Shown here: piece after piece, positions 8,256-44,612 of the stretch
How positions within the stretch are numbered: the first letter of the stretch is position 1
Layout: each line of letters begins with the position of its first letter
Source of the DNA: a virus
Length of the DNA: 44,612 nt
Reading direction: 5' to 3' (one strand)
Virus record (IMG/VR): IMGVR_UViG_3300005992_000001
Coordinates: 1 to 44,612 of that record
Notes under the pieces: model-generated
Database searches by the model: none
Seen by the model: the letters and a program-made list of their open reading frames with translations, nothing else
Told to the model about the DNA's origin: nothing
Program-made: the position numbers and the translations under genes

Positions 8256-8513
8256 TCATTTCTGTTTACGCGCAAGGAAGCGGCGATGCACGCGCATGCT
8301 GGCGATGATGCCCAGTGGTCCGCCGCCGAGGAAGGCGGCGATTTCGATGCCGGTAGCGTTGGGGGCCAATTTAAAAAGCAGCAGATTGCCGATGCCGATG
8401 CCGAAGCTGGTAAAAAACGCGGCCCAATAGTGCCCGCCATTGACGTTGAGCGATTGCAAGCCCAAGAAAAAAACAAGGGCGAAGGTGCTGGCAAAGAGAG
8501 TGAGGGCGGTCAT
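8256..8513 (-). CDS. Small integral membrane protein (about 3 TM)
   Basis: ATGA overlap with the kinase stop; hydrophobic segments LTLFASTFALVFFLGL, HYWAAFFTSFGIGIGNLLLF and IAAFLGGGPLGIIA. Confidence 0.6.
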   Translation of the reverse strand: MTALTLFASTFALVFFLGLQSLNVNGGHYWAAFFTSFGIGIGNLLLFKLAPNATGIEIAAFLGGGPLGIIASMRVHRRFLARKQK

Positions 8514-12732: not shown

Positions 12733-12742
12733 GAGTAGTGTT

Positions 12743-13015
12743 ATGGAAATTTTTATGGCGGCGGTGCTGTTGGGTTTGATTCCTGCGGTAATCGCATCTA
12801 AAAAAGGATACAGTTTTTTACTGTGGTGGGTTTTCGGAATATTTTTGCTAATCATTGCTTTGCCTATCGTGTTGATTATCGGCCCAAATAAGGGGGTTAT
12901 GCGTAAATGCCCGCGGTGCCTAGAATGGGTGAGACGGGAAGCAAGTGCATGCAAGTATTGCGGCGGAGAAATGAATAAAGCGAAAAGTGAATTGATAGGG
13001 GATGGCCCTGTTTAG
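12743..13015 (+). CDS. 2-TM membrane protein with C-terminal zinc ribbon (moron)
   Basis: TM segments AAVLLGLIPAVI and LLWWVFGIFLLIIALPIVLII, then CPRC...CKYCG. Confidence 0.55.
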   Translation: MEIFMAAVLLGLIPAVIASKKGYSFLLWWVFGIFLLIIALPIVLIIGPNKGVMRKCPRCLEWVRREASACKYCGGEMNKAKSELIGDGPV

Positions 13016-15649: not shown

Positions 15650-15856
15650 ATGGATAGGGCGGATTTTGCACAAGACAAGATTGATGCGGAGCAGGCGCAG
15701 CGTGTGGCGGCGCGGGTGGTGTATTACGGCGTGAGTGCGGGGGAGTGTATCGAGTGCGGTGAGCTGATCCCCAGTGCGCGGCAGGTGGCATTGCCCGGCT
15801 GTTTGTATTGCGTGGACTGTGTGGCAAGCATTGAGCGCGGTGAGGTGCGGCCATGA
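15650..15856 (+). CDS. TraR/DksA-family C4 zinc-finger protein
   Basis: CIECGELIPSARQ...CLYCVDC; GGGGAGG RBS. Confidence 0.75.
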   Translation: MDRADFAQDKIDAEQAQRVAARVVYYGVSAGECIECGELIPSARQVALPGCLYCVDCVASIERGEVRP

Positions 15857-16239
15857 ACTTGTTTATTTTTTGCCTAGAGCATGAAATTTTTGAGCTGGCG
15901 AATCTGGGGGCCATAAATGATTGCATTCAGCCCTGGCGCGCTGATGGGCGTATTCCAAAAAACGGCGATGTGGCGCGTTTCTACGCGACAAAATTTGGAT
16001 TAAGAACGGGGGATATTCACTGCGTCACCATCATCGACTCTTTGACATTGGCAATCTGCCCTAAGACGCATGCAGTGCGTCTTGAAGGTAGGTCATCAGA
16101 TGACGATGAAAAATTTGTTCTGGCATATAAATGCGGATTGTTTGACGCGGATGATCTTTTTGTTGGCTTACAGTCTCAGTTCAATGGCTTTGTGATTGCA
16201 TTCCACATTGACAGAACCATTCGATGTGGTGACGTATGA
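15853..16239 (+). CDS. Hypothetical protein (lower GC)
   Basis: 128-aa ORF with ATGA overlaps at both ends. Confidence 0.5.
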   Translation: MNLFIFCLEHEIFELANLGAINDCIQPWRADGRIPKNGDVARFYATKFGLRTGDIHCVTIIDSLTLAICPKTHAVRLEGRSSDDDEKFVLAYKCGLFDADDLFVGLQSQFNGFVIAFHIDRTIRCGDV

Positions 16240-16892
16240 CGCTATCACGCACGGGCGAGCCATCAACCCAAACACCCATCAAAATCACGCCTGAGCTGCT
16301 GGAGGCGATGACCGATTGTGATGATGGCGATGCCGAGATATGGGCGCCCCTTCTTACGCGCGCGGCGGCGCGGTATGACATCAGCACCCCGGCGAGGATG
16401 GCGGCCTGGGTGGGGCAGATTGCGCATGAGTCGCAGCGCTTTCGCCACACGGTAGAGAATTTAAACTACAGCGCCGCGCGTCTGCGGCAGGTTTTTCCGC
16501 GCCATTTTCCCGATTCGCGCATTGCGGGTGCGTATGCGCATGCGCCCGAGCGCATTGCCAATCGTGTTTATGCCCATCGCCTTGGCAATGGCGATGAGGC
16601 CAGCGGCGACGGATGGCGATTTCGTGGCCGGGGTTTGATTCAAATCACTGGGCGCGATAATTATCGCGCGTGCGGCGCTGGCATTTACCTGAATGTGATT
16701 ACGCATCCCGATATATTAACTATTCCACTGCGCGCGGCAACGTCGGCGGCGTGGTATTGGCATGTGCGTAAGCTGAATGCGCTCGCTGACAACAGTGATT
16801 ATGAATTGATAACGCGCCGCGTCAATGGCGGGCTGAATGGTCTGCAAGACAGGGTGAATCTCTCCATGCGCGCGCTGCGGGCGCTGGCATGA
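16236..16892 (+). CDS. Glycoside hydrolase family 19 (chitinase-like) lysozyme
   Basis: Blocks AAWVGQIAHESQRF, ENLNYSA, RFRGRGLIQITGRDNY and RRVNGGLNGLQDR are typical of phage GH19 muramidases. Confidence 0.85.
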   Translation: MTLSRTGEPSTQTPIKITPELLEAMTDCDDGDAEIWAPLLTRAAARYDISTPARMAAWVGQIAHESQRFRHTVENLNYSAARLRQVFPRHFPDSRIAGAYAHAPERIANRVYAHRLGNGDEASGDGWRFRGRGLIQITGRDNYRACGAGIYLNVITHPDILTIPLRAATSAAWYWHVRKLNALADNSDYELITRRVNGGLNGLQDRVNLSMRALRALA

Positions 16893-17266
16893 ATCAGCAC
16901 GCGTATAGTTTCCATCCGCAATTCGTCATGCCCTTGCTGCATGGCTTGAAGCTGCAAACGATACGCCGCCGCCATGATGATGAGCCCGCGCCGCTGCCAG
17001 GCGATACGGCGCGCTTGTATGCGGATGGGGATGACGGTCGCGCTGAGCTGTTGCTGAGCGTCATCATTACGCAGGTGCGGCCGGTCGCGATTCGTACCCG
17101 CTCGCGAACGATCACCCTCGACGGCGAGCTATTGTCATTGCTGCGCGCCCATGATTTCGCGCAGGCGGACGGCTTTGATAACCGTGATGCGCTGCTGGCG
17201 TACATCGCCAAGGTGTATGGCGATATGGAGTTCAGTGGCTGGTGCATCAATTGGGATGAGCCATGA
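16889..17266 (+). CDS. ASCH-domain-like protein
   Basis: FVMPLLHGLKLQTIRRR...PGDTARLY...FAQADGF fits the ASCH pattern. Confidence 0.55.
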   Translation: MNQHAYSFHPQFVMPLLHGLKLQTIRRRHDDEPAPLPGDTARLYADGDDGRAELLLSVIITQVRPVAIRTRSRTITLDGELLSLLRAHDFAQADGFDNRDALLAYIAKVYGDMEFSGWCINWDEP

Positions 17267-18930: not shown

Positions 18931-19671
18931 ATGAGTGTGGCGGTAATGGGTGAAGTGTTTAAGCGGTATCCGGCGGGCGGAAATGAAATGCTCTTGGCCT
19001 TGGCCTTGGCCGATCATGCGCATGATGATGGCACGCGAATCTTTCCATCTGTCGAGACCCTGGCAATGAAGGTACGCGTATCAGAGCGCACCGTGCAGCG
19101 GCTCTTGACGAAGATGGTCAAGGATGGTTGGCTGCAACTGGCGCGCGACTCATCGGGTGGACGTGGGCAAACGCGTCACTATAGGATAAATCCACACTGG
19201 GTAAACGGTGACAATATGTCACCGTTAAAAGCCACTCAAGAGCCCAATGCGGAGCCTCAAGCGGAGATGCTAAACGGTGACAATTTGTCACCGTTAAAAG
19301 CAGAAGGGGTGACACCACGGGTAGTAAAGGGTGACATAGCTGTGTCACCCGAACCATCAGAACCATCAGTATCTAGTTCTTACGAACTAGATACGCACGC
19401 AGGTGCAGAGCAGAAGCGCGTGAAGGTTAGGTGGGATGATGGCAGCAAGCTCTTCGTCGGCATCGACGATGAGCTGATGGACAAGTGGGAGGCCGCATAC
19501 AAGCCGCTCGATATCGACCAGGAGCTGACGCGGCTTGAGCTGTGGTATGAGAACAACCCGAAGAAGCGCAAGAAAAACGTGGAGCGCTTCATCACCAACT
19601 GCCTATCGCGCAAGGCGACCGAGCTCATGCGGCCGAGGTTTGCACCAAGACCAGCGAGACGCAGCGCATGA
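18931..19671 (+). CDS. Winged-HTH replication initiator-like protein carrying internal iterons
   Basis: N-terminal HTH FPSVETLAMKVRVSERTVQRLLTKMVKDGWL; a central repeat region encoded by palindromic iterons (lambda O-like arrangement). Confidence 0.55.
   Translation: MSVAVMGEVFKRYPAGGNEMLLALALADHAHDDGTRIFPSVETLAMKVRVSERTVQRLLTKMVKDGWLQLARDSSGGRGQTRHYRINPHWVNGDNMSPLKATQEPNAEPQAEMLNGDNLSPLKAEGVTPRVVKGDIAVSPEPSEPSVSSSYELDTHAGAEQKRVKVRWDDGSKLFVGIDDELMDKWEAAYKPLDIDQELTRLELWYENNPKKRKKNVERFITNCLSRKATELMRPRFAPRPARRSA
19202..19350. repeat. Origin-like iterons (GGTGACA-containing palindromes)
   Basis: 30-nt units at 19202-19231 and 19271-19300 (29/30 identical), each with 10-bp arms AACGGTGACA/TGTCACCGTT; a third palindrome GGGTGACA-N6-TGTCACCC at 19329-19350; a half-site at 19308-19314. 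Confidence 0.65.
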
Positions 19672-20338: not shown

Positions 20339-22380
20339 ACGCCGTAGCGCCGCTACCGCTGAGCGTTGATGTCGTCGAGAAGTATAAGCTCAGGCTCACG
20401 GCGGTGCGCGCGCTCAATCGCGCCTGGAAGAAATGGGCGCCGCCCGAGAAGCTATCTCTGCAAGACTGGGCCGATAAGTACCGCTATCTGGCGCCGGAAT
20501 CATCCGCCCGCCCTGGCAAATATTCATCGGCCGTCACACCCTGGATCAGGCCGATACAGGCGTTGTTCGATAATCCCAATATTCACAAAATCGTATGCCG
20601 CAAATCGGCGCAAGTGTGTTGGACCGATGGCATTGTCAACAACTTCATCGGCCAGCGCGTTGACCTTGACCCTTGCGCCATGGTCATCATGTTCGCCAAG
20701 GTCGACGCCGGGAAGGAATACCTCACCGAGAAATTCATCCCCATGGTGAGGGTGACGCCAAGGCTCACCGAGAAGATAGACGTGACCACCGCGCGCAAGA
20801 GCGGCAACCGTTGGAACTTTAAAAAGTTCCCTGGCGGCTTCTTGAAAATCGTCGGCTCGAATTCGCCCAACTCGGTTAAATCCACGCCAGCGCCCATTGT
20901 CATCGTCGAAGAGCCAGACGACGCCAACACCAACATTAAGGGCCAGGGTGATTCCATCCGTCTGCTTGAGGAGCGCATTAAGAGTTTTCACAACTACAAA
21001 ATCATCTATGGTGGCACGCCGACGATAGAAGGCTTGTCCGAGATTGACTTCGCCTATCAAAACTCAGATCAGCGTAAATTCTTCGTGCCATGCCATGATT
21101 GCGGACAAACGCACGTGCTCAGTTTCGACAACCTTAAATGGGACGAAGACGAGAGCGTCAATCATGAGGTCTATGGCCACGCACTGCCCGAAACGGCCTA
21201 CTATTCCTGCCCGCATTGCGGCTCAATCTGGAGCGACGCGCAGAAAAACAAGAACGTAGAGCGTGCCGAATTGCTGCCCACGGCGGACTTTCACGGCACG
21301 GCCGGTGTTGAAATGAACGAATTAATAAGCAACTTCCCCGGATCGCGCCTCAATAATTTGGCGCAAAAGCTCATATCAGCGCAGTACAAGGCCAGGCAAG
21401 GTGACTACAACAGCCTCATCGCCTTCACCAATAGCAGCATGGGCATGGCCTATCGTTTTGGTGGCAGGCAGTTCGACAAAGACGAATTGGCCAAGGAAAA
21501 AGAAGAGCACTATGAAGAGGGCGTTGTTCCACGTGAAGCGCTGATACTCACTGTCGGCATCGATATACAGCACAATCGCTTCGCCGTTATCAAGCGCGCG
21601 TGGGGTCGGGGTGAAGAGTCATGGCTGGTCTACTGGGGCGAGATATTCGGCACCATCACCGACAGTAGCGACCCGTCGTGGGACGAACTAGAGCGCTTCG
21701 TATTTCGCGGCCATCGCCATGAAAGCGGCGCCGAGATATTCGCCGAGGCCATCAGCCTCGACACCAGCGACGGCGTCACCTCCGATATCGCTTACGCCTG
21801 GGTGAGGCGCATGAACAAAAAATACAATGGCCGAACCGTTATGGCCATCAAGGGCGCGTCCGATGACGCCAAGCGCGAAATTTTCACCCCACCCAAAACG
21901 TCGGTGGACAACCGCACGCCCACCAAGGCCTCGCGCTACGGCCTGCGCATTTACAGTGTGGGCACGAACAAAGCGAAAGATTTGATACTAGGCTCAGACA
22001 ACGCCCACGGCCGCCTGCGTCTGCCTGGCAACGGCCCAGGCCGCTTTCACATCTATGCCGCGGTGCGCGCCGATTATTGGACGCAGATCACCGCCGAGGT
22101 CAAAGCCCCCAGCCGCCGCCTGCACGGCCGCATGGTCTACCAAAAAAAGGCGGGCGTGCCCAATGAGGCATTGGACTGCGAGGTGTACGCACTGCATGCC
22201 GCGCGCGCCATCAAGGTTCACCTCATGAGCCCTGCGCAATGGGACGAGCTGGAAAAGCGCCTATTACAATCAGACCTGTTTAAGACTGGCGCCGCGGCTC
22301 TGCCGCAAACAACGCCAGAAGACACCGCGCCACCGCGCGCCCCGCGTGAAATCGTTTCGGAGGATCCATGGCTGAGATAG
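20335..22380 (+). CDS. Terminase large subunit (lambda gpA family)
   Basis: 681 aa; WADKYRYLAPESSARPGKYS, Walker-like KSAQVCWTDG and a CPHCG Zn motif. Confidence 0.93.
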   Translation: MNAVAPLPLSVDVVEKYKLRLTAVRALNRAWKKWAPPEKLSLQDWADKYRYLAPESSARPGKYSSAVTPWIRPIQALFDNPNIHKIVCRKSAQVCWTDGIVNNFIGQRVDLDPCAMVIMFAKVDAGKEYLTEKFIPMVRVTPRLTEKIDVTTARKSGNRWNFKKFPGGFLKIVGSNSPNSVKSTPAPIVIVEEPDDANTNIKGQGDSIRLLEERIKSFHNYKIIYGGTPTIEGLSEIDFAYQNSDQRKFFVPCHDCGQTHVLSFDNLKWDEDESVNHEVYGHALPETAYYSCPHCGSIWSDAQKNKNVERAELLPTADFHGTAGVEMNELISNFPGSRLNNLAQKLISAQYKARQGDYNSLIAFTNSSMGMAYRFGGRQFDKDELAKEKEEHYEEGVVPREALILTVGIDIQHNRFAVIKRAWGRGEESWLVYWGEIFGTITDSSDPSWDELERFVFRGHRHESGAEIFAEAISLDTSDGVTSDIAYAWVRRMNKKYNGRTVMAIKGASDDAKREIFTPPKTSVDNRTPTKASRYGLRIYSVGTNKAKDLILGSDNAHGRLRLPGNGPGRFHIYAAVRADYWTQITAEVKAPSRRLHGRMVYQKKAGVPNEALDCEVYALHAARAIKVHLMSPAQWDELEKRLLQSDLFKTGAAALPQTTPEDTAPPRAPREIVSEDPWLR

Positions 22381-22952
22381 ACGATGATGATATTCTGGAA
22401 TTCATTCAGTGCGAAACCGAAACCACAGCCATGCGCTTCGGCATCAAATCCGCCGTGGCCAGCGACATCGCCCGCACACTTAGCGAGATAGTGCGGCAGC
22501 GTTATTCTGGCGAACTCACGTATATTCGTAAAACCAACCGCACCGCAAAAAATGAGCTGCGCCGCGCCGTCATGGCCGATTTTAACGGAAATAACCATAA
22601 TGCGGTTTGTGTGAGGCACGGCATCAGCCCCAGCACCCTTTATCGCTTCATGAGAGACTGTAAAACAGCGGAGACAAAACAGGCCAAGCGCCAGGCACGC
22701 CGCGCCGCCGTGCTCGCCGAGTTCAATGGGTTCAATCATGCTGAAATTTGCGATAAATACCACATCAGCGAGCGCTTGTTGTATCGTTATCTTCAAGAGC
22801 TGGATACAAAAAGCCTTAAGCGGTCAAAGCGCCGCGCGCGCGCTGCGGCGGTGCTGTCGGATTTAGGACATGAGGCCCCTGAAGCGGTCTGCGACAAGCA
22901 CGGCATCAGCCGCAGTACGTTAAGCCGGTACAAGAAAGAAGACGGGAATTAG
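22368..22952 (+). CDS. Mor-like transcriptional activator with a triplicated C-terminal HTH module
   Basis: YSGELTYIRK...RRAVMADFNGNNHNAVCVRHGISPSTLYRFMRD, then RAAVLAEFNGFNHAEICDKYHISERLLYRYLQE and RAAAVLSDLGHEAPEAVCDKHGISRSTLSRYKKE. Confidence 0.6.
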   Translation: MAEIDDDDILEFIQCETETTAMRFGIKSAVASDIARTLSEIVRQRYSGELTYIRKTNRTAKNELRRAVMADFNGNNHNAVCVRHGISPSTLYRFMRDCKTAETKQAKRQARRAAVLAEFNGFNHAEICDKYHISERLLYRYLQELDTKSLKRSKRRARAAAVLSDLGHEAPEAVCDKHGISRSTLSRYKKEDGN

Positions 22953-22962
22953 CGAGGTGAGC

Positions 22963-23196
22963 ATGAAAAGCGACGAAGTGGAATTATTACGCATATTACA
23001 ACAAAAACAGTGCAGCGGCGGCGACACTATTCTGCCGTACAAAATCGCGCATTCACTAGGCATGAACGAAAAAAGGGCAGAATATATTTTCTTAAAGTGG
23101 ACCGGCAAGGGCTGGTATGACTATGGCATACATTGTGGGCAGGATGGCTTACACCTGCTGGCGCCGCAGCACGCAGGGATAGCAATCCTCGCCTAA
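22963..23196 (+). CDS. Hypothetical protein (77 aa, lower GC)
   Basis: ATG 22963 after GAGGTG; its last codons lie inside the 40-bp repeat. Confidence 0.45.
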   Translation: MKSDEVELLRILQQKQCSGGDTILPYKIAHSLGMNEKRAEYIFLKWTGKGWYDYGIHCGQDGLHLLAPQHAGIAILA

Positions 23197-23217
23197 AACT
23201 GCCAGTTTTTATATTTT
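23178..23217 (+). promoter_or_regulatory. 40-bp conserved element, copy A (candidate activator-dependent late promoter)
   Basis: GATAGCAATCCTCGCCTAAAACTGCCAGTTTTTATATTTT, 38/40 identical to 39864-39903; contains TATATT (23210-23215) with no -35 match; dyad AAAACTG-C-CAGTTTT. Confidence 0.45.
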
Positions 23218-23247
23218 ATGCACCGCCGCCGCCTGAATATAGGTGGC

Positions 23248-23493
23248 ATGGATGCAGCGCTACTCACTCTTGATTTACCCACCCTTAAAGCCCGGCTTGC
23301 CGAGGCTGTGGCGGCGATGCACGCGCTGGCCATCGGCGCGCGCGAGGTGTCGGTGGCGAAAAATGATGTGCGGGTGCAGTACAACGAGCTAAACAAAACC
23401 GCATTACAGGAATACATCGGCCAGCTCAATGCAGCGGTACGTTACAAGGAAGTCGGCGCGCCGCAGCGCGCGCCGATTTATATCACGCTTTAA
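23248..23493 (+). CDS. Head-tail joining protein gpW-like
   Basis: AGGTGG RBS; small helical protein (LKARLAEAVAAMHALAIG...VQYNELNKTALQEYIGQLNAAV) in the lambda W position upstream of the portal. Confidence 0.6.
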   Translation: MDAALLTLDLPTLKARLAEAVAAMHALAIGAREVSVAKNDVRVQYNELNKTALQEYIGQLNAAVRYKEVGAPQRAPIYITL

Positions 23494-28418: not shown

Positions 28419-28954
28419 ATTTTACCTTGAGTTTGGCCACCGCTGATTTTGCTCAAGTGCCTAATTTTTTAGACGCCACGCAAAAGCAGATCAATGCAGC
28501 GGCAAAACGCACGGTGCGCAAAGTCGGTACCAGCGTCAGCTCGCAGTTCTCGCGTGAGCTGGCATCCGCGCACGACGTGCCCTTGAAATTAATCAGACAG
28601 CGGCGCGCATTTAAGCGCTTCGGCAAGGACAGCAGCGGCGCGGAAGAGGCGCGCTTATGGATAGGCACCCGCCCTGTCAAAGCATCTTGGCTTGGCGCCA
28701 TGCGCCAAACACGTCAAGGCGCACGTGTGCGCAAGCATGTTTTTGCCGAGGGCTTCATCGCCACCATGAAGAGCGGCCACACCGGCATCTTTCAGCGCCG
28801 CGGCCGCGCGCGTTTGCCGATTGATGAAGCGGTTGTTGAATTTCCTGAGGCCGCCATCATCGCCGCCCGCATCAAGGTGGGTATACCCACCAGACTGCAC
28901 ACGGTATTTCAGCAAGAACTGAATTATCAGCTCAATGTGAGGGGGGCGCGCTGA
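28415..28954 (+). CDS. Tail completion protein (lambda gpZ-like)
   Basis: ATGA overlap; blocks GFIATMKSGHTGIFQRRGRARLPIDE and FQQELNYQL parallel lambda Z. Confidence 0.7.
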   Translation: MNFTLSLATADFAQVPNFLDATQKQINAAAKRTVRKVGTSVSSQFSRELASAHDVPLKLIRQRRAFKRFGKDSSGAEEARLWIGTRPVKASWLGAMRQTRQGARVRKHVFAEGFIATMKSGHTGIFQRRGRARLPIDEAVVEFPEAAIIAARIKVGIPTRLHTVFQQELNYQLNVRGAR

Positions 28955-29124
28955 TGGGCGAAGATCTAGCGATCAAAATATTTAGCTCCATCATTTCCGG
29001 TCTGGTGGGTGGCGCCATCACCGGCGTTGCCGCCTTCGCCGCCATCCGCGTCGAGCTGCGTTATTTGCGCCGCGACATTGATGCCGCGCATGCAGAGCTG
29101 CGCGAAATGAGAAAACACGCATGA
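28954..29124 (+). CDS. Small 1-TM protein (56 aa, below track cutoff)
   Basis: Hand translation gives MGEDLAIKIFSSIISGLVGGAITGVAAFAAIRVELRYLRRDIDAAHAELREMRKHA; overlapping stop/start at both ends. Confidence 0.5.
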   Translation: MGEDLAIKIFSSIISGLVGGAITGVAAFAAIRVELRYLRRDIDAAHAELREMRKHA

Positions 29125-30430: not shown

Positions 30431-33400
30431 ATGGCGGACCAATCAGTAGCACTGCGCATCAAGGCCATTGTCGAAGGCCTAAACGATGTTGGCGGGCTCA
30501 TTAAAAAGATTGAAGAACTCGGTGGCAGCAGCGACACCGCCGCCGCCTTGGCCGCACACCTCGGCAAAGAACTCGCCGACCTCAGCAACAAACAAAAACT
30601 CGTCGACCAATTCACCGAGCTCAAGACCGAGCTGCAAGACACCTCCAAAAGCCTGGAGACCAGCGCCGCGCGCACGGCCACGCTGGCGCGTGAATTAAAG
30701 GCCACCGAAAACCCCAGCAAATCGCTCACGCGTGAATTCGCCAATGCGCGTAAGGAAACACGTGCACTCGCCGATCAAGAGCAGCGCCAGGGACTCGCGC
30801 TGCAAGACTTGCGCAAGCAAATGGGCGCGAGTGGCATCGAAAGCAAAAAGCTGGCACTGAGTCAGCGCGAGATCAGCCAGGCGGTCGCGCAAACCGAAGG
30901 GCGCATGCAGGGGCTAAAACAACGCCTCAGCGAGACCCGCGACCAAGCCGCGGCGAAGATGCCGGACCCCACAAAGGACATCAAGCGCGGCGCGCAAGAA
31001 TCCGCCACCTCGGTTGAATCACTCAGCGAATCCATCAAGCGCACCACCATGAGGATGGTGGGCTGGGTCGCCGCCGCCGTCGGCCTGAATAAAATCCGCA
31101 GCGGTATTGCTGCAATACTGGAAACCGGCGGCCGCTTTGAGTCGCTGGAAGTGCGCCTCACCGCGCTGATGGGGTCGCTCGAAGCCGGGCAGCAGGCCAC
31201 CGCCTGGATACAAGACTTCGCCAAGAACACGCCATTGCAACTGGGTGACGTCACCGAGGCCTTCGCCCGTCTGAAAACCTTCGGCCTCGATCCGATGGAC
31301 GGCACCATGCAGTCCTTGGTCGATGCCAATGCCAAGATGGGCGGGTCACAAGAGACCTTGCAGCGCATCATTCTCGGTGTCGGCCAGGCATGGACCAAGC
31401 AAAAACTGCAAGGCCAAGAAATCATGCAGCTCATGGAGGCGGGCATACCCGTATGGGATTTGCTCTCCAAGGCCATGGGCAAAAACGTGGTGGAGCTGCA
31501 AAAGCTCTCGGCGCAAGGCAAGATCGGCCGCACTGAAATCAGCCTATTGATAGACGAAATCGGCCGCAGCTCGCAGGGCGCCGCCGCCGCGCAAATGGCG
31601 ACCTGGACCGGCCTGGTCTCCAATCTCAAGGATACCTGGAGCAACTTCCTTAACTCGATCGCCAAATCCGGCGTGCTGGATTTTTTCAAACGCCAAGTGC
31701 AAGACGTGCTCGACACCACCGCCCGCATGGCCAGCGACGGCAGCCTGCAACGCATGGCCACCGCCACGGCCAATGCCATTGTCAGCATGGCCAAGGTCAT
31801 CAAGGGCACGGTCGTCACGCTGTACGAATTCAGCGGCGTGCTGGCGCTCACGGCCAAGGCTATCATTGCTGTTAAGTTGGTGGGGTTGGTGAAAGGGTTC
31901 GCGGATTTAGCGCTGAAATTATCATCCGCAGTGACCCCGGCGCTTGTAGGCACCGGCGCGGCGGCCACGGGCGCGGCGGTCAAGATGGGCCTGCTGGCGC
32001 GGGTCATGTCCGCCATCCCCAAAAATTTCGCCATTGCGCTGGCGGTCGTCGGCATCGATGTTGCGGTGCGGGGGGCGGAGTGGCTAGGCGAGGCTATAGC
32101 CAAAATAAGTCCGGCCGGAAAAATAGCCGAGCAAGCTTTGCAGCGATTAAGCGATGAGGCGCGGCGCAATCTTGATGTTTCCACGGCGGCGGCGGCCGCG
32201 AATGAAAAATTCGCTGACACCAAAATAAAAAGCAGCGAAGAAATAATCAAGCTCAGCGCAAGGGAGCGCGCCGCCTACGCGGAGGCGATACAGGGCGCGG
32301 AAAAATACCATACAGCAATTCTAGTTACTGCGCGCACCCAAGAGATTTTGGGCGAAAACACAAAAGAGATTCAAGACGCGGCCATCGCCGCCCTGGCCGA
32401 ACTGCGCACGGCCTACGCTGACATCGAGAAATCCACCCTGGCCGCCGCCAACAGCGCCGCCACGTTGTCGCCGCAAGTGACCGAACTGGTAGACCAATTC
32501 CGCAGCCTGGCGGCGGAGGGTAAGGGCGCGCTCGATGCCTTGCTCAAGCCGCTTGATCCGGCCTCGCTCGACTCGGTCAAGCAGATCACGCAAGCCCTGG
32601 ATGAGCTGCTGGCCAAGGGTGAATTAACATCAACGGAACTCAGCGCCGGTCTGCGCGAGACTATACAAAAACTGGGCGCGGAGGATCTGACAAAATTACG
32701 CGTCATCGCAAAATCCACCTTCGACGAAATGGGCCAGGGTGGCGCCGCCGTGGCCGCCGTGCTCAAGGCGACGACGCAAGCCGCGCTGCAAGGCCTGGGC
32801 GTTGACCTAGGCGAAATCACTACAGGCCTCAAAAAGAACGAGCGCGCCGCGCTTGATAGCTTCGGCGTTATCGCCACCGGACTGGAAGACCTGGGGCTGG
32901 ACGCAAAGCAAAGCGCGAGAGTGTTGCAAGAGTCATTAATCAAGGCGCTGGAGGATATCAAATCCAAGCAAGGCGTTCAGGCCTTGCGCGATAGCATCAT
33001 CCAGCTTGGCCGTGACGGTGAGTTATCCGGCAAGCAGGTATCGCAGGCGCTCGCGGATATGGACAAGGCCGCCGCCACGGTCGCGGGCAGCCTAGATAAG
33101 GTAGGCGAGGCCGGAAAAAGCGCGGGCGAAAAGACGCAAGAGGGAATGAAGACCGCCGAGGATGCGACGAAGCGCAGTAGCGCGGCCATTAATGAATTCG
33201 CCGCGCGCTTGGCCTCGCTGAGTACGCAGGAAGCACGCCAGCTTGGTGACGAATTGGTATTGGCTTTTGAGCGCGGAATCATTTCCGCCGCCGAATTTGA
33301 AGGCAAAATCGATCAAGTGCGGCTGCGCATTAATGCGCTCGCCACGGCCGGAGAAGGCATTAGTGCGGCGCTGGCAAAACCGATTAAGGCGGCGCGCGAA

Positions 33401-34294
33401 GAGTTCGCGAAATTTGGTGATGAGGCGGCGCAAGAATTCGACAGGGTAGTGAAAGAGGCGGCGACCTCGGGTGCCAGTGTGGAAAACTTCTGGCGGCGTT
33501 TGGCCGATGGCACTGACCGTCTGCGCTTCAAATACCAAGAAATCGAGGCGCAGGCCGAGCGCACCGCGCAGCGACAAGTGGCGGCGACTAAACAGCAAGA
33601 GGCCGCCACGCGCAAGCAGTCGGCCGCCGTGGATCAACTGGTGGACGATCTCGCCCGTGCCGATGCAGGCACGGCAGCCGTGGTCGACCGCGCGCGCGCG
33701 GCGGCAGGCGCGATGCGAAACCTCGACGCCAGCACTCTTGACAGATTGAATCGCAGCATCGCGGACGCTGAAAACCGCTTGATAGCAATCAAAGACAAAG
33801 CGCGCTCCGCCACTGAATCGCTGCGCGATGAATTGTCACGGCTGCAAGGCGACGAGGCCACGATAGAAGAGCGCGATTTTCAGCGGCGTCTACAAGAGCT
33901 GGAGGCGTTGAACGCCGCCGCGAAAGCCAGCAAGGACAGCAGCGCCAAGCAAGATGCGCTTGAAGCAATAGACCTGCTGAAGCAAGTGCACGCCAAGCGC
34001 ATGGAAAACATCGCCGCCGAGGCCGCCGCGCAACAACAGCGTGACGCCGAGGCCGCCGCGCGCGAGACCGCCACCAACAGCACCAGCGCCGCGAAGTCCG
34101 CGGCCGCCGCCAGCGGTGGCGCGGTGGCGCGATCATCGGGCAGAATCGCCCCGCAAAGCGCGCAAGCGGCGCAAGTGAGTAAGGTGGTCAGGATCGAGTG
34201 GCCAACACGGGCAGGCGTAGCGCGGGGCGATTTTCCCGAGGCCGACGCGGCGCGTCTTTTGGACGCGCTGCAAAATGATGCGCAAAGGGCATAG
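30431..34294 (+). CDS. Tape measure protein
   Basis: 1287 aa, coiled-coil rich; core block WIQDFAKNTPLQLGDVTEAFARLKTFGLDP...GQEIMQLMEAGIPVWDLL; central TM-like segments. Confidence 0.92.
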   Translation: MADQSVALRIKAIVEGLNDVGGLIKKIEELGGSSDTAAALAAHLGKELADLSNKQKLVDQFTELKTELQDTSKSLETSAARTATLARELKATENPSKSLTREFANARKETRALADQEQRQGLALQDLRKQMGASGIESKKLALSQREISQAVAQTEGRMQGLKQRLSETRDQAAAKMPDPTKDIKRGAQESATSVESLSESIKRTTMRMVGWVAAAVGLNKIRSGIAAILETGGRFESLEVRLTALMGSLEAGQQATAWIQDFAKNTPLQLGDVTEAFARLKTFGLDPMDGTMQSLVDANAKMGGSQETLQRIILGVGQAWTKQKLQGQEIMQLMEAGIPVWDLLSKAMGKNVVELQKLSAQGKIGRTEISLLIDEIGRSSQGAAAAQMATWTGLVSNLKDTWSNFLNSIAKSGVLDFFKRQVQDVLDTTARMASDGSLQRMATATANAIVSMAKVIKGTVVTLYEFSGVLALTAKAIIAVKLVGLVKGFADLALKLSSAVTPALVGTGAAATGAAVKMGLLARVMSAIPKNFAIALAVVGIDVAVRGAEWLGEAIAKISPAGKIAEQALQRLSDEARRNLDVSTAAAAANEKFADTKIKSSEEIIKLSARERAAYAEAIQGAEKYHTAILVTARTQEILGENTKEIQDAAIAALAELRTAYADIEKSTLAAANSAATLSPQVTELVDQFRSLAAEGKGALDALLKPLDPASLDSVKQITQALDELLAKGELTSTELSAGLRETIQKLGAEDLTKLRVIAKSTFDEMGQGGAAVAAVLKATTQAALQGLGVDLGEITTGLKKNERAALDSFGVIATGLEDLGLDAKQSARVLQESLIKALEDIKSKQGVQALRDSIIQLGRDGELSGKQVSQALADMDKAAATVAGSLDKVGEAGKSAGEKTQEGMKTAEDATKRSSAAINEFAARLASLSTQEARQLGDELVLAFERGIISAAEFEGKIDQVRLRINALATAGEGISAALAKPIKAAREEFAKFGDEAAQEFDRVVKEAATSGASVENFWRRLADGTDRLRFKYQEIEAQAERTAQRQVAATKQQEAATRKQSAAVDQLVDDLARADAGTAAVVDRARAAAGAMRNLDASTLDRLNRSIADAENRLIAIKDKARSATESLRDELSRLQGDEATIEERDFQRRLQELEALNAAAKASKDSSAKQDALEAIDLLKQVHAKRMENIAAEAAAQQQRDAEAAARETATNSTSAAKSAAAASGGAVARSSGRIAPQSAQAAQVSKVVRIEWPTRAGVARGDFPEADAARLLDALQNDAQRA

Positions 34295-39863: not shown

Positions 39864-39903
39864 GATAGCAATCCTCGCCTAAAATTGCCAGCTTTTATAT
39901 TTT
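39864..39903 (+). promoter_or_regulatory. 40-bp conserved element, copy B (candidate activator-dependent late promoter)
   Basis: GATAGCAATCCTCGCCTAAAATTGCCAGCTTTTATATTTT; TATATT at 39896-39901; intergenic, upstream of the envelope cassette. Confidence 0.45.
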
Positions 39904-40008
39904 TCGCATAGCCCAGCACGTAGTTTTACATAGGCGCCGCCTATCGTCGCAAATGCTTTTTTGCCATGACGGGCCACCAAAGTAGTCGGCATCCTTGGAG
40001 GGCATCAT

Positions 40009-40530
40009 GTGAAAATCGACGTGAGCAAACAGATTAAATTCGCGGGCCTCTGCGCCGCCGTTGCGTTTACATTGACGCTGTCAAGCTGTGCATCGATCAC
40101 CGGCGCAATCGACGGTAAAGACGTGCGAGCAAAATTCGCCTTTACCATTGCAACGATGAAAGCCATCCGCGGCGACGCGCACCGCGCTCAGGGCATTATT
40201 GACCGGGCGAATCGTATTGAGGCATTGCTAGACGGCAATCCGCTCATCGCCATCGTCGATTATGACACGCAGATCAAGAAGGCCATAGGCTTTGATCAGC
40301 TCTTACCAGAAGACCAACTCATGGCCGATCTGCTTTTGTCTCAGCTTCGCGATGATTTAAGCAAATCCATTGGTGAGCCAGGCGACCCCGGCAGCACAAA
40401 AGAGCGCGCGCGCACTATCGTCGAATGGATACGTGGCGCGGCGCAGTCGTGGCTTATCGCCGACGAAGTCAAGCGCAACCAAGACAAAGGCATATGGCTT
40501 CCCGAGGCGGGTCAGGCGGAGACATCCTAA
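40009..40530 (+). CDS. Lipoprotein (173 aa)
   Basis: GTG start 6 nt after GGAGGG; signal peptide with lipobox LSSC (Cys27). Confidence 0.65.
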   Translation: MKIDVSKQIKFAGLCAAVAFTLTLSSCASITGAIDGKDVRAKFAFTIATMKAIRGDAHRAQGIIDRANRIEALLDGNPLIAIVDYDTQIKKAIGFDQLLPEDQLMADLLLSQLRDDLSKSIGEPGDPGSTKERARTIVEWIRGAAQSWLIADEVKRNQDKGIWLPEAGQAETS

Positions 40531-40787
40531 TGAAGGATGAGACCACCACAAAAAGGCTCGCCTATTTTTACACGTTAATCTTCGCGCTCGTGATCGCCAT
40601 GGAATTTTTATTCGCATGGTATGCAATCGAAATTAATGACGCCATCCAGCGCATGCTGGATTTTTCATGCGGCATTCTCTTCGCCATGGTGCTGGCCGCG
40701 AAAGATTATTATCTTGGATCGTCGATGGGATCGGCGCGCAAAACCGAGATTATGAGCGCACCAAAACCAACGAGCGATGAGTCATAA
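40530..40787 (+). CDS. 2-TM small membrane protein (holin-like topology)
   Basis: TAATG overlap; TM segments LAYFYTLIFALVIAMEFLFAWYAI and CGILFAMVLAA; charged C-terminus. Confidence 0.55.
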   Translation: MKDETTTKRLAYFYTLIFALVIAMEFLFAWYAIEINDAIQRMLDFSCGILFAMVLAAKDYYLGSSMGSARKTEIMSAPKPTSDES

Positions 40788-40788
40788 C

Positions 40789-40893
40789 ATGCCCCTCTTG
40801 CGCGCACTCAAGATCATTTGCATCACGCTTATGATTGGCGCGCTCGCCCTTGCGGGTTCATTCATCAAGCACGACGAGGAGAAGCGGACATGA
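40789..40893 (+). CDS. 34-aa single-TM peptide (below track cutoff)
   Basis: MPLLRALKIICITLMIGALALAGSFIKHDEEKRT; starts 2 nt after the upstream stop; ATGA overlap downstream. Confidence 0.4.
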   Translation: MPLLRALKIICITLMIGALALAGSFIKHDEEKRT

Positions 40894-41123
40894 TCGGCGC
40901 AAGCATCGGCGCGGTGATGGGCGCATACACGCTACTCATCGTGCTAACGCCCGGCGAGGCACCTGCAATCATGTATCGGCCATCGGAAGTTATGGAGGTG
41001 TGCCAGGTGACTCTGCCCTCGCCCGAGGTGGCATGTGTGTCGCAGACAAGCCTGCCAATCAGGCGCGACGATGGGTGGTCTGTGGTCGACGCAATTCAAT
41101 CAAATAAAGGTGGACCCAAATAA
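40890..41123 (+). CDS. N-terminally anchored small membrane protein (77 aa)
   Basis: MIGASIGAVMGAYTLLIVL is a TM segment followed by a Cys-containing tail. Confidence 0.5.
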   Translation: MIGASIGAVMGAYTLLIVLTPGEAPAIMYRPSEVMEVCQVTLPSPEVACVSQTSLPIRRDDGWSVVDAIQSNKGGPK

Positions 41124-41743
41124 TGCGCAAGCTGATAGCGGTAGTATTATTCGCCGTCGGTGCGACGGCGCAGGCGGGGTTAAACATTCCACCCGGGCAA
41201 ATCACCATCCAGCGTGATGCTCTCACCGGGGACATTGCGTTCACGATCACGCCGGACTCGGCCACCTACGTCCTCACCAAGCCGTTCATTGATAATAAGC
41301 GATGCTCGATACTCACCCCGTCGCGCGCGGAAACAGTGCCGACAATACCGACTGACTTATCTGTCTACCTCGCCGCCAACGGCTACGAATTAAGCGCGGC
41401 GCAGCTTGCCTTGTGCGCGGGAGTCACTACAGCGCCGGCTGTGGTGGATGTGCCGCCAGTCCCCGCGCCAGACCCTACCCCCGTAGTCGTTGAAACAAAT
41501 TGGTTTGTCGCGTCAACCCCAAACGGCTCGCGGAATGCATTCGCAGCGGTGCAAGTGGGCGGAGCATGGGCGATGCAAGCCCCGTCCAAAGTTGTCGGGC
41601 AAGTAGCAACGGATGAGCGGTGTGATGGGCCAATGATTGAGGATAGAGGGTTTCGTAAGGTTGGCGGCATCGCTTATCCGGTCGGATTTTTTCTCGTTTC
41701 ACTTTCTGGGCAGAGCGCAATCATTCTCTGCGAAAAACGATGA
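41123..41743 (+). CDS. Secreted protein with a Pro-rich linker (206 aa)
   Basis: Sec signal MRKLIAVVLFAVGATAQA; VPPVPAPDPTPVV linker. Confidence 0.6.
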   Translation: MRKLIAVVLFAVGATAQAGLNIPPGQITIQRDALTGDIAFTITPDSATYVLTKPFIDNKRCSILTPSRAETVPTIPTDLSVYLAANGYELSAAQLALCAGVTTAPAVVDVPPVPAPDPTPVVVETNWFVASTPNGSRNAFAAVQVGGAWAMQAPSKVVGQVATDERCDGPMIEDRGFRKVGGIAYPVGFFLVSLSGQSAIILCEKR

Positions 41744-42126
41744 TAAAAATAAAAAGAGGCAGCTCAATATTATTGCGGACTGGGAATTACGAAATAGTAA
41801 GTGGTCTTGGAATACTTTTTAAAGACGGGGCGCAAGTGGGGATTTGTTGCCACATTCCCGGAGTTGAGGCCGCGACAAAATATTTCGATTGTACCGATGA
41901 CAGCTTTGAGTACTCGGCGATAAGAGTAAGCCACATAAAAATACGCGATTCTGGCTCAATGTCCGCTGAGTATTTCTACGCGTACATCCGCATGATGAGG
42001 TTGAGGGTTTCTGACCGGCTGAAAATGATCGATGTGATAATCAATCAGTTTGCGTTATCAAATACCTCAATCGCATTGCTTTTATGTTCGGCACGAGAAT
42101 CTGTATCAAGGAAAAGAAATGGGTAA
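41740..42126 (+). CDS. Small cytoplasmic protein with a Crp/Fnr-like C-terminal HTH remnant
   Basis: LSNTSIALLLCSARESVSRKR resembles the Crp-family ...SRETVSR recognition helix; only 128 aa. Confidence 0.4.
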   Translation: MIKIKRGSSILLRTGNYEIVSGLGILFKDGAQVGICCHIPGVEAATKYFDCTDDSFEYSAIRVSHIKIRDSGSMSAEYFYAYIRMMRLRVSDRLKMIDVIINQFALSNTSIALLLCSARESVSRKRNG

Positions 42127-43210
42127 ATCATTTATAACGGCGATAGCCGCTTTTTTTTCGTTCGCAGCACTCGCCTGCATTGATCCGCCTACACCGCCAT
42201 CAGCTGGCGAGTATGCGGTGTATGACCTGGGTAATTATCCAGGACCGGTGCAATGCGAAGACGTTCAAAGTTCGATTTGCCGCACTGATGCGGATTACTC
42301 AGCAATGCTCGCAGGCCCGGACGGCAGGATGTACATACCGCCCGGCTACGGCCACGCGGCATCTTACAATAACCAAACGTCCATATATGATCCATCGACT
42401 CGCATATGGTCTTGGTCAGTCAATCGCACGCCGTGCGCTGATGTGCGCGAATCAAACATCGACAAGGCTCAAGGGCGGTATCTATCTAATAACATGCCGA
42501 TCGGCACGCACACATATGATCTAGTTGCAACCGTGGGCGAAGAGATACTGGTAGCTGCACAGGTTCAAGGGCGGGGAAAGGGTTGCAATAATTTAATCCA
42601 GTCAGGCGCGCCAGGTTATGAATACATTATCGCGAGCGGTTCGTTTCGTTTTTACAATCCCTCAACTGATGTTTGGAGATTTACCAATATTCCCGCGCGC
42701 GACTATAAAAGCGCAATTGAAATCGAGCCGTCCGGCGATGTAATAATCGTCGATTCGACGTCGGTGCAGAGGTACAACGTAAGCGCCGGAACGTTCGTCA
42801 CGCTGATGAGTTTCAAGCTCCCGGGGATGGGCAGCAGCGCGGAGCTGATCCGTGCGGCAAATACAGGCAGGTACTACTGGATAGGGCAAAATAAGCAAAC
42901 CGGCTTTGGCCGCGACGTGTACGAGATCGACGTTGACGCTAGAACGATTGTAACGCATGGCGTTATACCCGACGGTGCCGGACATGGGTTCGCTTATGGT
43001 AATGGAAAGATTGTCGGCGGGCTGAAAAATGGCGCGATCTATACTTATGATCCAGTCACGGGTGGCGTAGCTGAAAAAGTTCTAACTGAGACGCCATGCG
43101 GCGGGCCGCTAGCAACGCATGGCTACGCGTGGGTGTATAGCGCGTCGATAAATGGATTTGTTGGCCGCATTTTTCGCGGCGCGTGCAATCGGACTATTGA
43201 ATACCGCTAA
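42119..43210 (+). CDS. Exported (possibly lipidated) Kelch-like beta-propeller protein
   Basis: Signal FITAIAAFFSFAALAC; recurrent blade motifs IYDPSTRIWSW, FYNPSTDVWRF, RYNVSAGTFVT and TYDPVTGGVAE. Confidence 0.55.
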   Translation: MGKSFITAIAAFFSFAALACIDPPTPPSAGEYAVYDLGNYPGPVQCEDVQSSICRTDADYSAMLAGPDGRMYIPPGYGHAASYNNQTSIYDPSTRIWSWSVNRTPCADVRESNIDKAQGRYLSNNMPIGTHTYDLVATVGEEILVAAQVQGRGKGCNNLIQSGAPGYEYIIASGSFRFYNPSTDVWRFTNIPARDYKSAIEIEPSGDVIIVDSTSVQRYNVSAGTFVTLMSFKLPGMGSSAELIRAANTGRYYWIGQNKQTGFGRDVYEIDVDARTIVTHGVIPDGAGHGFAYGNGKIVGGLKNGAIYTYDPVTGGVAEKVLTETPCGGPLATHGYAWVYSASINGFVGRIFRGACNRTIEYR

Positions 43211-43222
43211 GGGAGACGCTGA

Positions 43223-43648
43223 ATGAGTCAACAAACACAAGATTGGGGCACGGCCGGAGCGCTATCACTTCTCAGCACAGAGATGAATTCACTCGCTAAT
43301 GCGACGTACAGTAGCGCAGGAAGTGCCGTAGACTTGGGCGACCCGGGTCCGTTCGCAATTGTGATAAGGTCCGCGGTGACGGGATCTGGCTCAGGTTCGG
43401 GGCTGCTAAAAATTTATGCACTATGGTCTGATGACAATACTAATTTTTCCGAGCAATCAGCCGCTGCGCCTAACGGCGAGCCCGTTGGAGTGATGTACGT
43501 GAACTCAGGCACGGGGTCTAAAAAGATATTTCAAATATCCGTCAAAGCGCGCTATGTTAAATTTATCGTGTACAACAATACAGGCGCAGCGCTGGCTGCA
43601 AGCGGCAGCACGATAGTAGGCCAAAAAGTCGATGTAAATATCACCTAA
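43223..43648 (+). CDS. Small beta-sandwich-like fibre-associated protein
   Basis: 141 aa; GGGAGA RBS; ARYVKFIVYNNTG is reminiscent of discoidin/CBM-like domains (weak). Confidence 0.45.
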   Translation: MSQQTQDWGTAGALSLLSTEMNSLANATYSSAGSAVDLGDPGPFAIVIRSAVTGSGSGSGLLKIYALWSDDNTNFSEQSAAAPNGEPVGVMYVNSGTGSKKIFQISVKARYVKFIVYNNTGAALAASGSTIVGQKVDVNIT

Positions 43649-43649
43649 A

Positions 43650-44612
43650 ATGCGCGGGCCTTATATACATTTAGCCAAGCCTAGCCGCGTATGGCATACC
43701 GACCGGCAGATTGAGATTGATCTATCCCATCCGCTTGCGCGTGATATCGTCGCGTATTGGGCGATGGGTAACGCGGGGGACATGGTTGATCTTGTAGCGC
43801 AGCAGCAAGGCACGCATTCATCACCCACTAACATTACCGATGACGTAAGCATCAACGGTGCATGCACTGATTACGTCTCTTCGGCCTATACGGATTTACC
43901 ATCATTACGTCTCACTGAAAGTACGCCATTTGGCATGGTGGTGATGCTGGAGACCACGACCACCGGCAACGGGCGGTATATAGCGGCTGAGGGTAATACG
44001 GGGCTGACCAATCCAATAACAGGGATTTACTCTCAAAGCGGGGTTTTGACGGGAATATGGCGCGATGACGCAGGCGGTGGGACAGGCACGATTTCTGGCG
44101 CAAGCGGCATTAATGATGGCAAGCCGCACACCGCTATTTTGACGGCTTCTCTCGCATCAAATGACCGGGTGTATCTGTATCAAGATGGGGTCGAGTATAG
44201 CAGCGGCACATTTAACCCGGGCACAAAAACGCAAAACACAACAACACTCGCGGCGATGCGGCGGTCCACCGTCTCAAACCATATGATCTCGGGCAAGATT
44301 TATTATGCCGCTTTTTTCAAGCGGCAGATTGAGCCGGAGGGCGCGTTATGGCTGACTGAATCGCCACGCGACATCCTGCTTACGCCGAAACAAAGACTGT
44401 TTTTTATTGGTGATGCGGCGGGCGGCGGTACGCCGCATAATTTAACACTCTCTTCAACCTCATCATCCAGCAGTATTGACTCCGCCGTGATAACGCAAAC
44501 GCACGCGCTTGCCGTTGACGATGTCGCCGCCGCCGCCTCGATGGCGGGCATGGCGGTGAGCGAAGGCGCGGTGCATGATCTCACGATGGCCGACAGCGCG
44601 AGCGCGGGCGAT
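43650..44612 (+). CDS. 5' part of the LamG (concanavalin-like) domain fibre protein, continues at 72..464
   Basis: ATG 43650 lies 2 nt after the upstream TAA; the frame stays open to the window end; DGKPHTAILTAS...RVYLYQDG...ISGKIYYAAFFKRQIEPEGALWL fits Laminin_G_3. Confidence 0.75.
   Translation, partial: MRGPYIHLAKPSRVWHTDRQIEIDLSHPLARDIVAYWAMGNAGDMVDLVAQQQGTHSSPTNITDDVSINGACTDYVSSAYTDLPSLRLTESTPFGMVVMLETTTTGNGRYIAAEGNTGLTNPITGIYSQSGVLTGIWRDDAGGGTGTISGASGINDGKPHTAILTASLASNDRVYLYQDGVEYSSGTFNPGTKTQNTTTLAAMRRSTVSNHMISGKIYYAAFFKRQIEPEGALWLTESPRDILLTPKQRLFFIGDAAGGGTPHNLTLSSTSSSSSIDSAVITQTHALAVDDVAAAASMAGMAVSEGAVHDLTMADSASAGD
44542..44612. repeat. Terminal overlap, identical to 1..71
   Basis: Exact 71-nt identity with the window start. 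Confidence 0.95.

Follow-up and report, generated by a model that had tools for sequence, protein, structure and literature searches.

Two-component spanins, exemplified by Rz/Rz1 of phage lambda and by the Rz-type and Rz1-type proteins of Pseudomonas phages Turba and Lodos, combine an inner-membrane i-spanin, which has an N-terminal transmembrane segment and a periplasmic coiled coil of about 100 amino acids (aa), with an outer-membrane lipoprotein, the o-spanin, which has a short, usually Pro-rich mature part and is encoded by a gene embedded in, overlapping or following that of the i-spanin. The lysis factors found more recently include releasin, Lcc6, disruptin and LysZ. Recent work has shown that lysis cassettes hold extra small membrane factors (PMC9239132; bioRxiv 10.1101/2024.01.23.576932), and the gp28 disruptin of phage phiKT disrupts the outer membrane without spanins (bioRxiv 10.1101/515445). 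We describe here a cassette of seven genes (hereafter g1 to g7) at positions 40009-43210 of IMG/VR virus record IMGVR_UViG_3300005992_000001, a stretch of 44,612 nucleotides (nt) that we call the window and whose numbering is used for all genes and elements. We tentatively propose that this cassette is a non-canonical lysis or egress module.

The window has the same 71 nt at both ends (1-71 and 44542-44612) and therefore represents a complete, circularly assembled phage genome of 44,541 bp. The phage is a lambda-like temperate siphovirus. The cassette consists of the following open reading frames (ORFs):

40009-40530, + strand: g1, 173-aa lipoprotein with lipobox LSSC
40530-40787, + strand: g2, 85-aa small inner-membrane protein
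40789-40893, + strand: g3, 34-aa peptide with a single transmembrane segment
40890-41123, + strand: g4, 77-aa protein with an N-terminal hydrophobic segment
41123-41743, + strand: g5, 206-aa protein with Sec-type secretion
41740-42126, + strand: g6, 128-aa basic protein with no export signal
42119-43210, + strand: g7, 363-aa exported Kelch propeller, lipobox-type

All seven ORFs of the initial annotation of this DNA are present, and their junctions read as it had claimed: TAATG at g1/g2 and g4/g5, ATGA at g3/g4 and g5/g6, a 1-nt gap at g2/g3 and an 8-nt overlap at g6/g7. The lower GC content reported for the block was also found (0.51-0.54 over 40001-43000, versus 0.60-0.70 in the tail genes). 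Shine-Dalgarno-like sequences lie upstream of g1, g2, g4, g5 and g7; none was found upstream of g6. The export signals, read from hydropathy and by motif inspection, are real. First counted in five products, they occur in six of the seven, each of which has a transmembrane segment, a signal peptide or a lipobox. In a crude whole-genome set of ORFs of at least 50 aa, envelope-type products accounted for 4/5 ORFs in the cassette and 5/57 elsewhere in the genome (Fisher p = 0.001).

Searches of Pfam, PHROGs, NCBIfam and PADLOC returned nothing significant for any of the seven products. Neither the cassette nor the structural region at 20-40 kb matched any of 50,697 phage records by Megablast, and tblastn was equally negative for the concatenated cassette in those records (E ≤ 1) and for g1, g2 and g7 in 72,556 plasmids. 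Clustered at 90%, each of the seven products forms a singleton among about 15 billion proteins, the cluster members being solely copies of this phage. The phage is present in ENA assemblies ERZ27235094-98 and run SRR5580768.

The first two genes constitute a conserved, translationally coupled pair belonging to new families. The g1 gene has a GTG start with GGAGG upstream, and its lipobox Cys, invariant in four homologues, is followed by Ala at position +2, which suggests sorting to the outer membrane. The mature part (147 aa) was modelled as all-helical by AlphaFold2 (AF2), with moderate confidence (predicted local distance difference test, pLDDT, 65.5). Homologues were present in three other phage contigs, at 60%, 58% and 29-32% identity, so that the family is represented in four phage contexts; profile scans of IMG/VR, GTDB genomes and JGI metagenomes recovered only the twin on contig L020. 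The g2 protein, with one strong transmembrane segment and a weak second hydrophobic segment of about 13 residues, has a charged, hydrophilic C-terminus with an invariant tail (KDY[FY]LGSSxGSxRKTE). It appears holin-like in size and shape, and a hydrophilic N-terminal extension of 50 residues in one member of the family, which is known from five contexts, argues for a cytoplasmic N-terminus. The coupling of g1 to g2 by TAATG in the window has counterparts in L018 (1-nt overlap; g1 60% and g2 63% identity) and in L028 (ATGA overlap; g1 29-32% and g2 62% identity), whereas in L020 the coupled partner of the g1 homologue is, in place of g2, a PHROG-holin protein with two transmembrane segments. 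Furthermore, the order g1, g2, g7 is shared by two phages that are otherwise unrelated, the window siphovirus and the Mu-like L018. The homologues of these genes have the following neighbourhoods:

L018, Mu-like: Mor; amidase endolysin; g1 and g2 homologues; 111-aa protein; g7 homologue; three ORFs; DUF2730
L020, 2 kb: g1 homologue with a 1-nt overlap to a 65-aa protein of PHROG holin families with two transmembrane segments
L028, 1 kb: ATGA coupling between a divergent lipoprotein of the g1 type and a g2 homologue
L023, temperate: tailspike; endolysin (phrog_894, 1e-18); g7 homologue; holin (phrog_1356, 2.2e-15)
L019, SU10-like podophage: g7 homologue after an adaptor gene
L026, lambda-like siphophage: g2 homologue between head genes

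In L018, the stop codon of the amidase endolysin gene (phrog_822, 9.8e-45) is where the g1 homologue begins, the g2 homologue is one gene away from the endolysin, and the g7 homologue belongs to the same lysis operon. The interval between the endolysin and DUF2730 genes of phage Mu holds the spanins gp23/23.1, DUF2730 being the gp25 releasin (PMC9239132), and the L018 block between the endolysin and DUF2730 genes occupies the position of these spanins. The g7 family occurs without g1 or g2 in L019, L022 and L023. Members of the g1, g2 and g7 families were thus observed within lysis cassettes in three independent contexts, with L019 and L026 as counter-examples, in a set of homologue contexts that is small and consists mostly of short metagenomic contigs.

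A full HMMER scan identified 157 relatives of g7; a word-indexed search of 5.8 billion proteins returned only g7 itself, and no match to a profile of the phage-clade propellers was found in IMG/VR. The Kelch Pfam model (PF24681) matched 27 of the 36 aligned relatives, g7 itself remaining below the Pfam cutoffs. The AF2 model is a six-bladed propeller (pLDDT 85; predicted template modelling score, pTM, 0.85), for which Foldseek gave Kelch domains as the top matches (E = 3.5e-11, TM-score 0.70 to 5yy8). Judged by this model, g7 is a genuine six-bladed Kelch propeller. Its signal ends in ALAC, fitting the relaxed lipobox pattern only, with VLAC and FMAC in homologues, and the protein is a predicted lipoprotein that would be tethered to the outer membrane in the mechanism proposed below. 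The family has retained its signal peptides or lipoboxes and its cysteines; the conserved polar residues include GGGH79, H131, D134, D203, D220 and R274, and GGGH and RHxYD are family motifs. The distant relatives resemble bacterial surface proteins: two carry a Por_Secre_tail sorting domain (type IX secretion system, T9SS), and several end with a Gly/Cys motif, a hydrophobic segment and a basic tail.

Two further features of the propeller genes were observed. Immediately behind the propeller gene, or separated from it by one small ORF, four phages encode a protein of about 400-525 aa that lacks a signal peptide (L018 6515-8926, L019 11107-13145, L022 5523-6749 and window 43650-1533). Regions of jelly-roll/LamG-like or beta-helix-like type are present in these proteins, many of which also contain tandem repeats, and small ORFs come after them; BLAST detected no similarity among those of the four phages. 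In L023 (8681-8760), the lipoprotein signal of the propeller, MARTANLLSTILFAVIFMAC, lies upstream of the called start in a different frame from the body of the protein; the gene may be a pseudogene, or a frameshift or an error of assembly may be the cause. L023 and L024, from two runs, have the same called protein, and the upstream DNA was read in L023 alone.

The initial annotation also claimed that the cassette follows its own copy of a repeated upstream element. There are exactly two copies of this element in the genome, versus none expected by chance, and one of them precedes g1:

39864-39913 (core 39873-39903), + strand: element copy 2, about 50 nt, intergenic, 96 nt upstream of g1
23178-23227 (core 23187-23217), + strand: element copy 1, just upstream of the gpW, portal and head-tail operon
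22368-22952, + strand: gene for a transcription activator of the Mor family, lying immediately 5' of element copy 1

The two copies are 88% identical and hold a dyad (AAAACTG-C-CAGTTTT) followed by TATATT. The activator gene was identified by PF08765 Mor (E = 2e-14, 53.9 bits, cutoff 24.9) and by phrog_532, "late transcriptional activator" (1.4e-15). Between it and element copy 1 there is a 77-aa ORF, the 3' end of which is the 5' half of this copy; the second copy carries a non-coding remnant of that 3' end, which suggests that the putative promoter was copied by recombination. We consider the element to be a putative activator-dependent late promoter common to the cassette and the head-tail operon. 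Because it is shared with the head operon, where it comes after the Mor-family gene, we infer that the cassette would be expressed late, with the structural genes, rather than from the prophage. The element was not called as a terminator, and it was not found in IMG/VR or in any other fetched locus. Scans for sigma-70 promoters and terminators did not exceed shuffled controls, and the fold of the leader RNA was not significant (z = 0.49 for the 198-nt intergenic region). The Mor-family gene and the 77-aa ORF are inserted between terL and gpW (22368-23253), and the probable start of gpW is not 23218 but ATG 23249 or 23253, which AGGTGG precedes.

As for the position of the cassette, the last tail-tip gene ends at 39820. 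In Stenotrophomonas phage S1, one IMG/VR contig and the distantly related Pseudomonas phages Turba and Lodos, the tail module closes with the homologues of a pair of proteins, the 595-aa tail protein and the small protein (88 aa) that follows it. Because this pair closes the module in the relatives, the cassette lies at the end of the tail module and is not demonstrably inside it, as had been stated. In Turba and Lodos, which have a homologous tail protein with 37% identity, the small tail protein gene is followed by a 245-nt gap, a GH19 endolysin gene, an Rz-type gene (N-terminal transmembrane segment and coiled coil) and an Rz1-type gene (LAGC lipobox). In the window, g1-g7 occupy this endolysin-Rz-Rz1 slot, after a gap of 188 nt. 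The relatives S1 and L007 have unrelated accessory genes in the post-tail slot.

Downstream from g7, the + strand block crosses the junction of the circular genome, with ORFs of 141, 451, 211, 120 and 70 aa followed by M15 and DUF1353 genes. These and the other genes relevant to lysis are:

43223-43648, + strand: 141-aa ORF, 12 nt after g7; phrog_5707 (unknown function), 6e-5
43650-44612, ending at 464, + strand: 451-aa ORF, weak concanavalin/LamG-like domain, then tandem repeats
475-1533, + strand: 211-aa and 120-aa ORFs, same strand block
1630-2522, + strand: M15-family peptidoglycan peptidase (endolysin-type) and DUF1353 protein, end of the co-directional block
16236-16892, + strand: GH19 endolysin, early/replication region; phrog_181, 5.7e-78; PF00182
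8256-8537, - strand: PHROG-holin family protein, 93 aa, three transmembrane segments; phrog_7045, 1.2e-11

The 451-aa ORF spans the circular junction and was for this reason missed by linear ORF lists. The downstream genes had been described as fibre-like, but they had no PHROG tail match, and tblastn of the four ORFs gave no match among the 50,697 phage records; they may still have a fibre role. The M15 gene (1630-2154) matches phrog_465 endolysin (2.4e-23), PF13539 and PF02557; the DUF1353 protein (PF07087) has the PHROG label "tail assembly chaperone", and there is a terminator-like hairpin at 2703-2715, 3' of its gene. The genome being circular, the M15 gene is 3 kb downstream in the same block as the cassette, with no strong terminator between them. 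The statement that no endolysin is adjacent holds strictly, but it overlooked this endolysin-family gene at the end of the same strand block, and also a GH19 enzyme without holin or spanin partners. The latter is encoded 24 kb from the cassette and is flanked by proteins of 128 and 125 aa, neither of which has a transmembrane segment; a canonical lysis trio around GH19 (15853-17266) was therefore rejected. The surroundings of the GH19 gene include a TraR/DksA-like zinc-finger ORF upstream and the 125-aa ORF and DnaB downstream; by eye, with no family match, the 125-aa ORF may be ASCH-like. A scan of all ORFs in the window revealed no plausible lipoproteins other than g1 and g7, and neither an Rz-like ORF nor a homologue of Turba Rz or Rz1 was found there. 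The argument by elimination is stronger for the outer-membrane step than for the holin, given the PHROG-holin gene at 8256-8537. This gene overlaps the end of the dNMP kinase gene (8510-9082) in the leftward early region, an odd location for a holin.

The intervening genes, g3 to g6, had no detectable homologues, and a scan of IMG/VR for g5 was likewise negative. The codon score of g3 is positive. The exported part of g4 is Pro-rich with two Cys, its N-terminal segment being either an anchor or a cleavable signal, and g5 has a canonical signal peptide (...ATAQA/G, cleavage motif AQA-G) and two Cys-containing domains separated by a Pro-rich linker. The weakly coding g6 is an outlier in composition, with a GC content of 0.42 and a negative codon score in every frame, and it is uncalled in 4/5 public copies of this phage; we treated it as a probable gene, if a doubtful one, of foreign origin because its 128-codon frame stays open in AT-rich DNA and has operon-style overlaps. 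Its C-terminus had been likened to a Crp/Fnr recognition helix, but the PF00325 match (E = 0.058, 13.6 bits versus a cutoff of 21) and the absence of a cyclic nucleotide (cNMP)-binding domain led us to reject a Crp-like regulator. Overall, the claim that envelope-directed products of undescribed families lie behind a regulatory element of their own was borne out. The notion of one seven-gene system was not, as only g1+g2 and g7 recur in other phages.

Compared with two-component spanins, the cassette is similar in that an outer-membrane-type lipoprotein (g1) is coupled to an inner-membrane protein (g2), in that homologues of the pair or of g1 lie in or beside lysis genes (L018, L020), and in its use of the same post-tail slot as the endolysin-Rz-Rz1 genes of Turba and Lodos. 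It differs in that g1 and g2 have no sequence similarity to spanins, the lipoprotein gene precedes the membrane-protein genes, the mature domain of g1 is large and predicted to be helical rather than short and Pro-rich, neither g2 (85 aa) nor g4 (77 aa) has the long helical periplasmic domain of an i-spanin, and no endolysin gene lies directly beside g1+g2 in the window. Small size, a membrane location and a charged tail are features that g2 and g3 share with class II holins/pinholins (S21 type), the Mu gp25 releasin and LambdaSo Lcc6, but the C-terminal motif of g2 is far more conserved than usual holin tails and its second segment has only about 13 residues. No match to a Pfam, PHROG or NCBIfam holin family, or to DUF2730, was obtained for g2 or g3. 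The cassette would fill the same gap as the phiKT gp28 disruptin, a single small cationic peptide that has no counterpart in it. As with lambda lom/bor, T5 Llp and Cor, exported products are encoded right after the tail-tip gene (lom after J), with a moron-like lower GC content. Each of those proteins is the product of a single gene that has a promoter of its own and is in most cases expressed early or by the prophage, whereas the cassette is a multi-gene coupled block with an element common to the head operon and no sequence similarity to them. The propeller g7 has the six-bladed Kelch fold of the KEAP1, KLHL and NS1-BP Kelch domains and of bacterial secreted Kelch proteins, but is phage-encoded and disulfide-rich, with a lipobox-type tether and no BTB or other partner domains. 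The cassette would work most like a lysis cassette and resembles lom in position. It is built from three unannotated families, and it falls outside the spanins (by gene order, o-spanin size and composition, and the lack of an i-spanin coiled coil) and outside the described holin families.

A non-canonical lysis or egress module is the reading we favour, at a likelihood just short of even. Under this reading, the cassette would be the 5' half of a second late operon, which would begin at about 39.9 kb, cross the junction and end near 2.7 kb, analogous to a Plys operon and driven by an activator-dependent promoter common to the head-tail operon. At the inner membrane, g2, possibly with g3 and g4, would act in a holin-like manner or as a holin accessory. 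The g1 protein, co-translated with g2, would be an outer-membrane tether supplying the periplasm/outer-membrane step usually performed by spanins, and g7, with its conserved polar pocket, may be an accessory factor binding, or enzymatically modifying, a component of the envelope. Peptidoglycan would be degraded by the M15 peptidase, the lone GH19 enzyme or both. The analysis itself shows the gene anatomy, the export signals, the Kelch fold of g7, how the families are distributed and what surrounds them; the timing of expression, the topology of the products, the interaction between g1 and g2 and the lytic activity are what we infer in this scheme. A more ambitious version, in which g1+g2 would be an unrecognised two-component system breaching the periplasm and outer membrane, an "inverted" spanin analogue with its large helical subunit anchored by lipid in the outer membrane and its small one in the inner membrane, and g7 a new lysis-cassette factor binding or modifying an outer-membrane or cell-wall tether, together explaining some spanin-less phages, is doubtful.

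Several observations weigh against a role in lysis. All of the functional evidence is contextual and positional, and none of the cassette proteins is similar in sequence to a known holin, spanin, releasin or disruptin; the non-canonical holin/spanin role suggested initially finds contextual support, in the homologue neighbourhoods and in the Turba/Lodos slot, but no family resemblance. The g1, g2 and g7 families are very rare (4-5 contexts each), g2 occurs without g1 in L026 and L027, and the only fold search for the core pair, that of the g1 model against the PDB with Foldseek, yielded no fold match (best E = 0.6). The lipoprotein-first gene order and the size and composition of g1 are unlike those of o-spanins. 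In L019, the g7 homologue lies in the structural module with no lysis gene among its annotated neighbours, and in L026 the g2 homologue is located among head genes. The promoter scan did not call the upstream element as a sigma-70 promoter, and a holin candidate that competes with those of the cassette is provided by the PHROG-holin gene at 8256-8537 (- strand). Morons are known to insert both in lysis cassettes and at tail ends, and adjacency to lysis genes may reflect such a preference rather than function. Finally, a recognisable spanin is missing anyway from about 15% of phages of Gram-negative hosts (bioRxiv 10.1101/515445).

Exported products are also found in superinfection exclusion, for which T5 Llp, Cor, T4 Imm/Sp and HK97 gp15 provide parallels. 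Candidates for such exclusion, or for the masking and modification of receptors, are g1 and g7 as outer-membrane lipoproteins, the small proteins of the inner membrane and the periplasmic g5; they would keep incoming phage from adsorbing or from delivering its DNA, or prevent progeny from adsorbing to debris. The classical moron position after the tail-tip genes and upstream of the integrase gene, where S1 and L007 have accessory genes, is consistent with this explanation, as are the lower GC content and foreign-looking composition, the ORFan-like, sporadically distributed families, and the conserved polar residues of the g7 family, which are compatible with ligand or receptor binding. We nevertheless consider it unlikely, given that the block is not bracketed by a sigma-70-type promoter or terminator, that its sole upstream element is common to the head operon, which should be silent in a lysogen, that the L018 homologues are translationally fused into a late lysis operon, and that there is no similarity to known exclusion or defence families. 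A role in defence, suggested initially, gained no support from PADLOC, in which no match for the cassette products was better than E = 0.029.

The same sporadic distribution might indicate a functionally unrelated mosaic, in which g1-g2, g3-g6 and g7 (perhaps with the LamG-like gene) were acquired separately and packed together for compactness, their roles being unrelated or dispensable. Only g1+g2 and g7 recur, and they also do so apart (g2 in L026/L027; g7 in L019/L022/L023), g3-g6 are singletons among the 15 billion proteins, and the composition of g6 is unlike that of its neighbours. The conservation of the g1-g2-g7 order in two unrelated phages, the envelope targeting of 6/7 products and the start/stop codon overlaps throughout the cassette make such a mosaic rather improbable. 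We attach very little weight to a virion or tail-fibre set, with the propeller as a receptor-binding or structural protein and the small proteins as assembly factors. Kelch propellers do occur in some phage proteins annotated as virion structural or tail fibre proteins (Foldseek against BFVD), one g7 homologue follows the adaptor gene of an SU10-like phage, and the PHROG label of the downstream DUF1353 protein refers to tail assembly. However, tailed-phage virions assemble in the cytoplasm, so the export signals on g7 and its phage homologues, which have conserved, paired cysteines, and on the other products argue against a virion role, and 0/7 products match a PHROG tail family.

Elsewhere in the genome, the structural genes are ordered terS, terL, gpW, portal, protease and major capsid, then tape measure and tail-tip genes; the cassette directly follows the tail-tip genes and precedes the integrase gene. 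The corresponding coordinates are:

30431-34294: tape measure gene
4083-5729, - strand: serine integrase gene

Additional features were noted. A 420-aa transposase (13296-14558; phrog_2331, 4e-158) resembles an insertion sequence within the phage genome. Two direct repeats of 31 nt (19202-19232 and 19271-19301; 97% identical) lie inside a RepO-like gene, both containing the palindrome GGTGACAATATGTCACC, and are probably origin iterons. The early region also encodes a 99-aa protein (12716-13015) with two transmembrane segments and, by eye, a zinc-ribbon-like Cys motif, which matches phrog_8436 (3.7e-17; function unknown) and is another membrane moron. Among the head-tail joining genes, a 56-aa ORF (28954-29124) that combines a transmembrane segment with a short coiled coil is a possible releasin-like or holin-like gene; a 79-aa protein of similar shape follows the g2 homologue at the equivalent place in L026.

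If the cassette is indeed a lysis or egress module, the lipoprotein/inner-membrane pair and the propeller lipoprotein would extend the lysis repertoire of phages and provide clonable candidates for a spanin-free breach of the outer membrane. Should it serve exclusion instead, such a late-expressed module would be of unusual complexity. Under either reading, three unannotated protein families gain a testable context.

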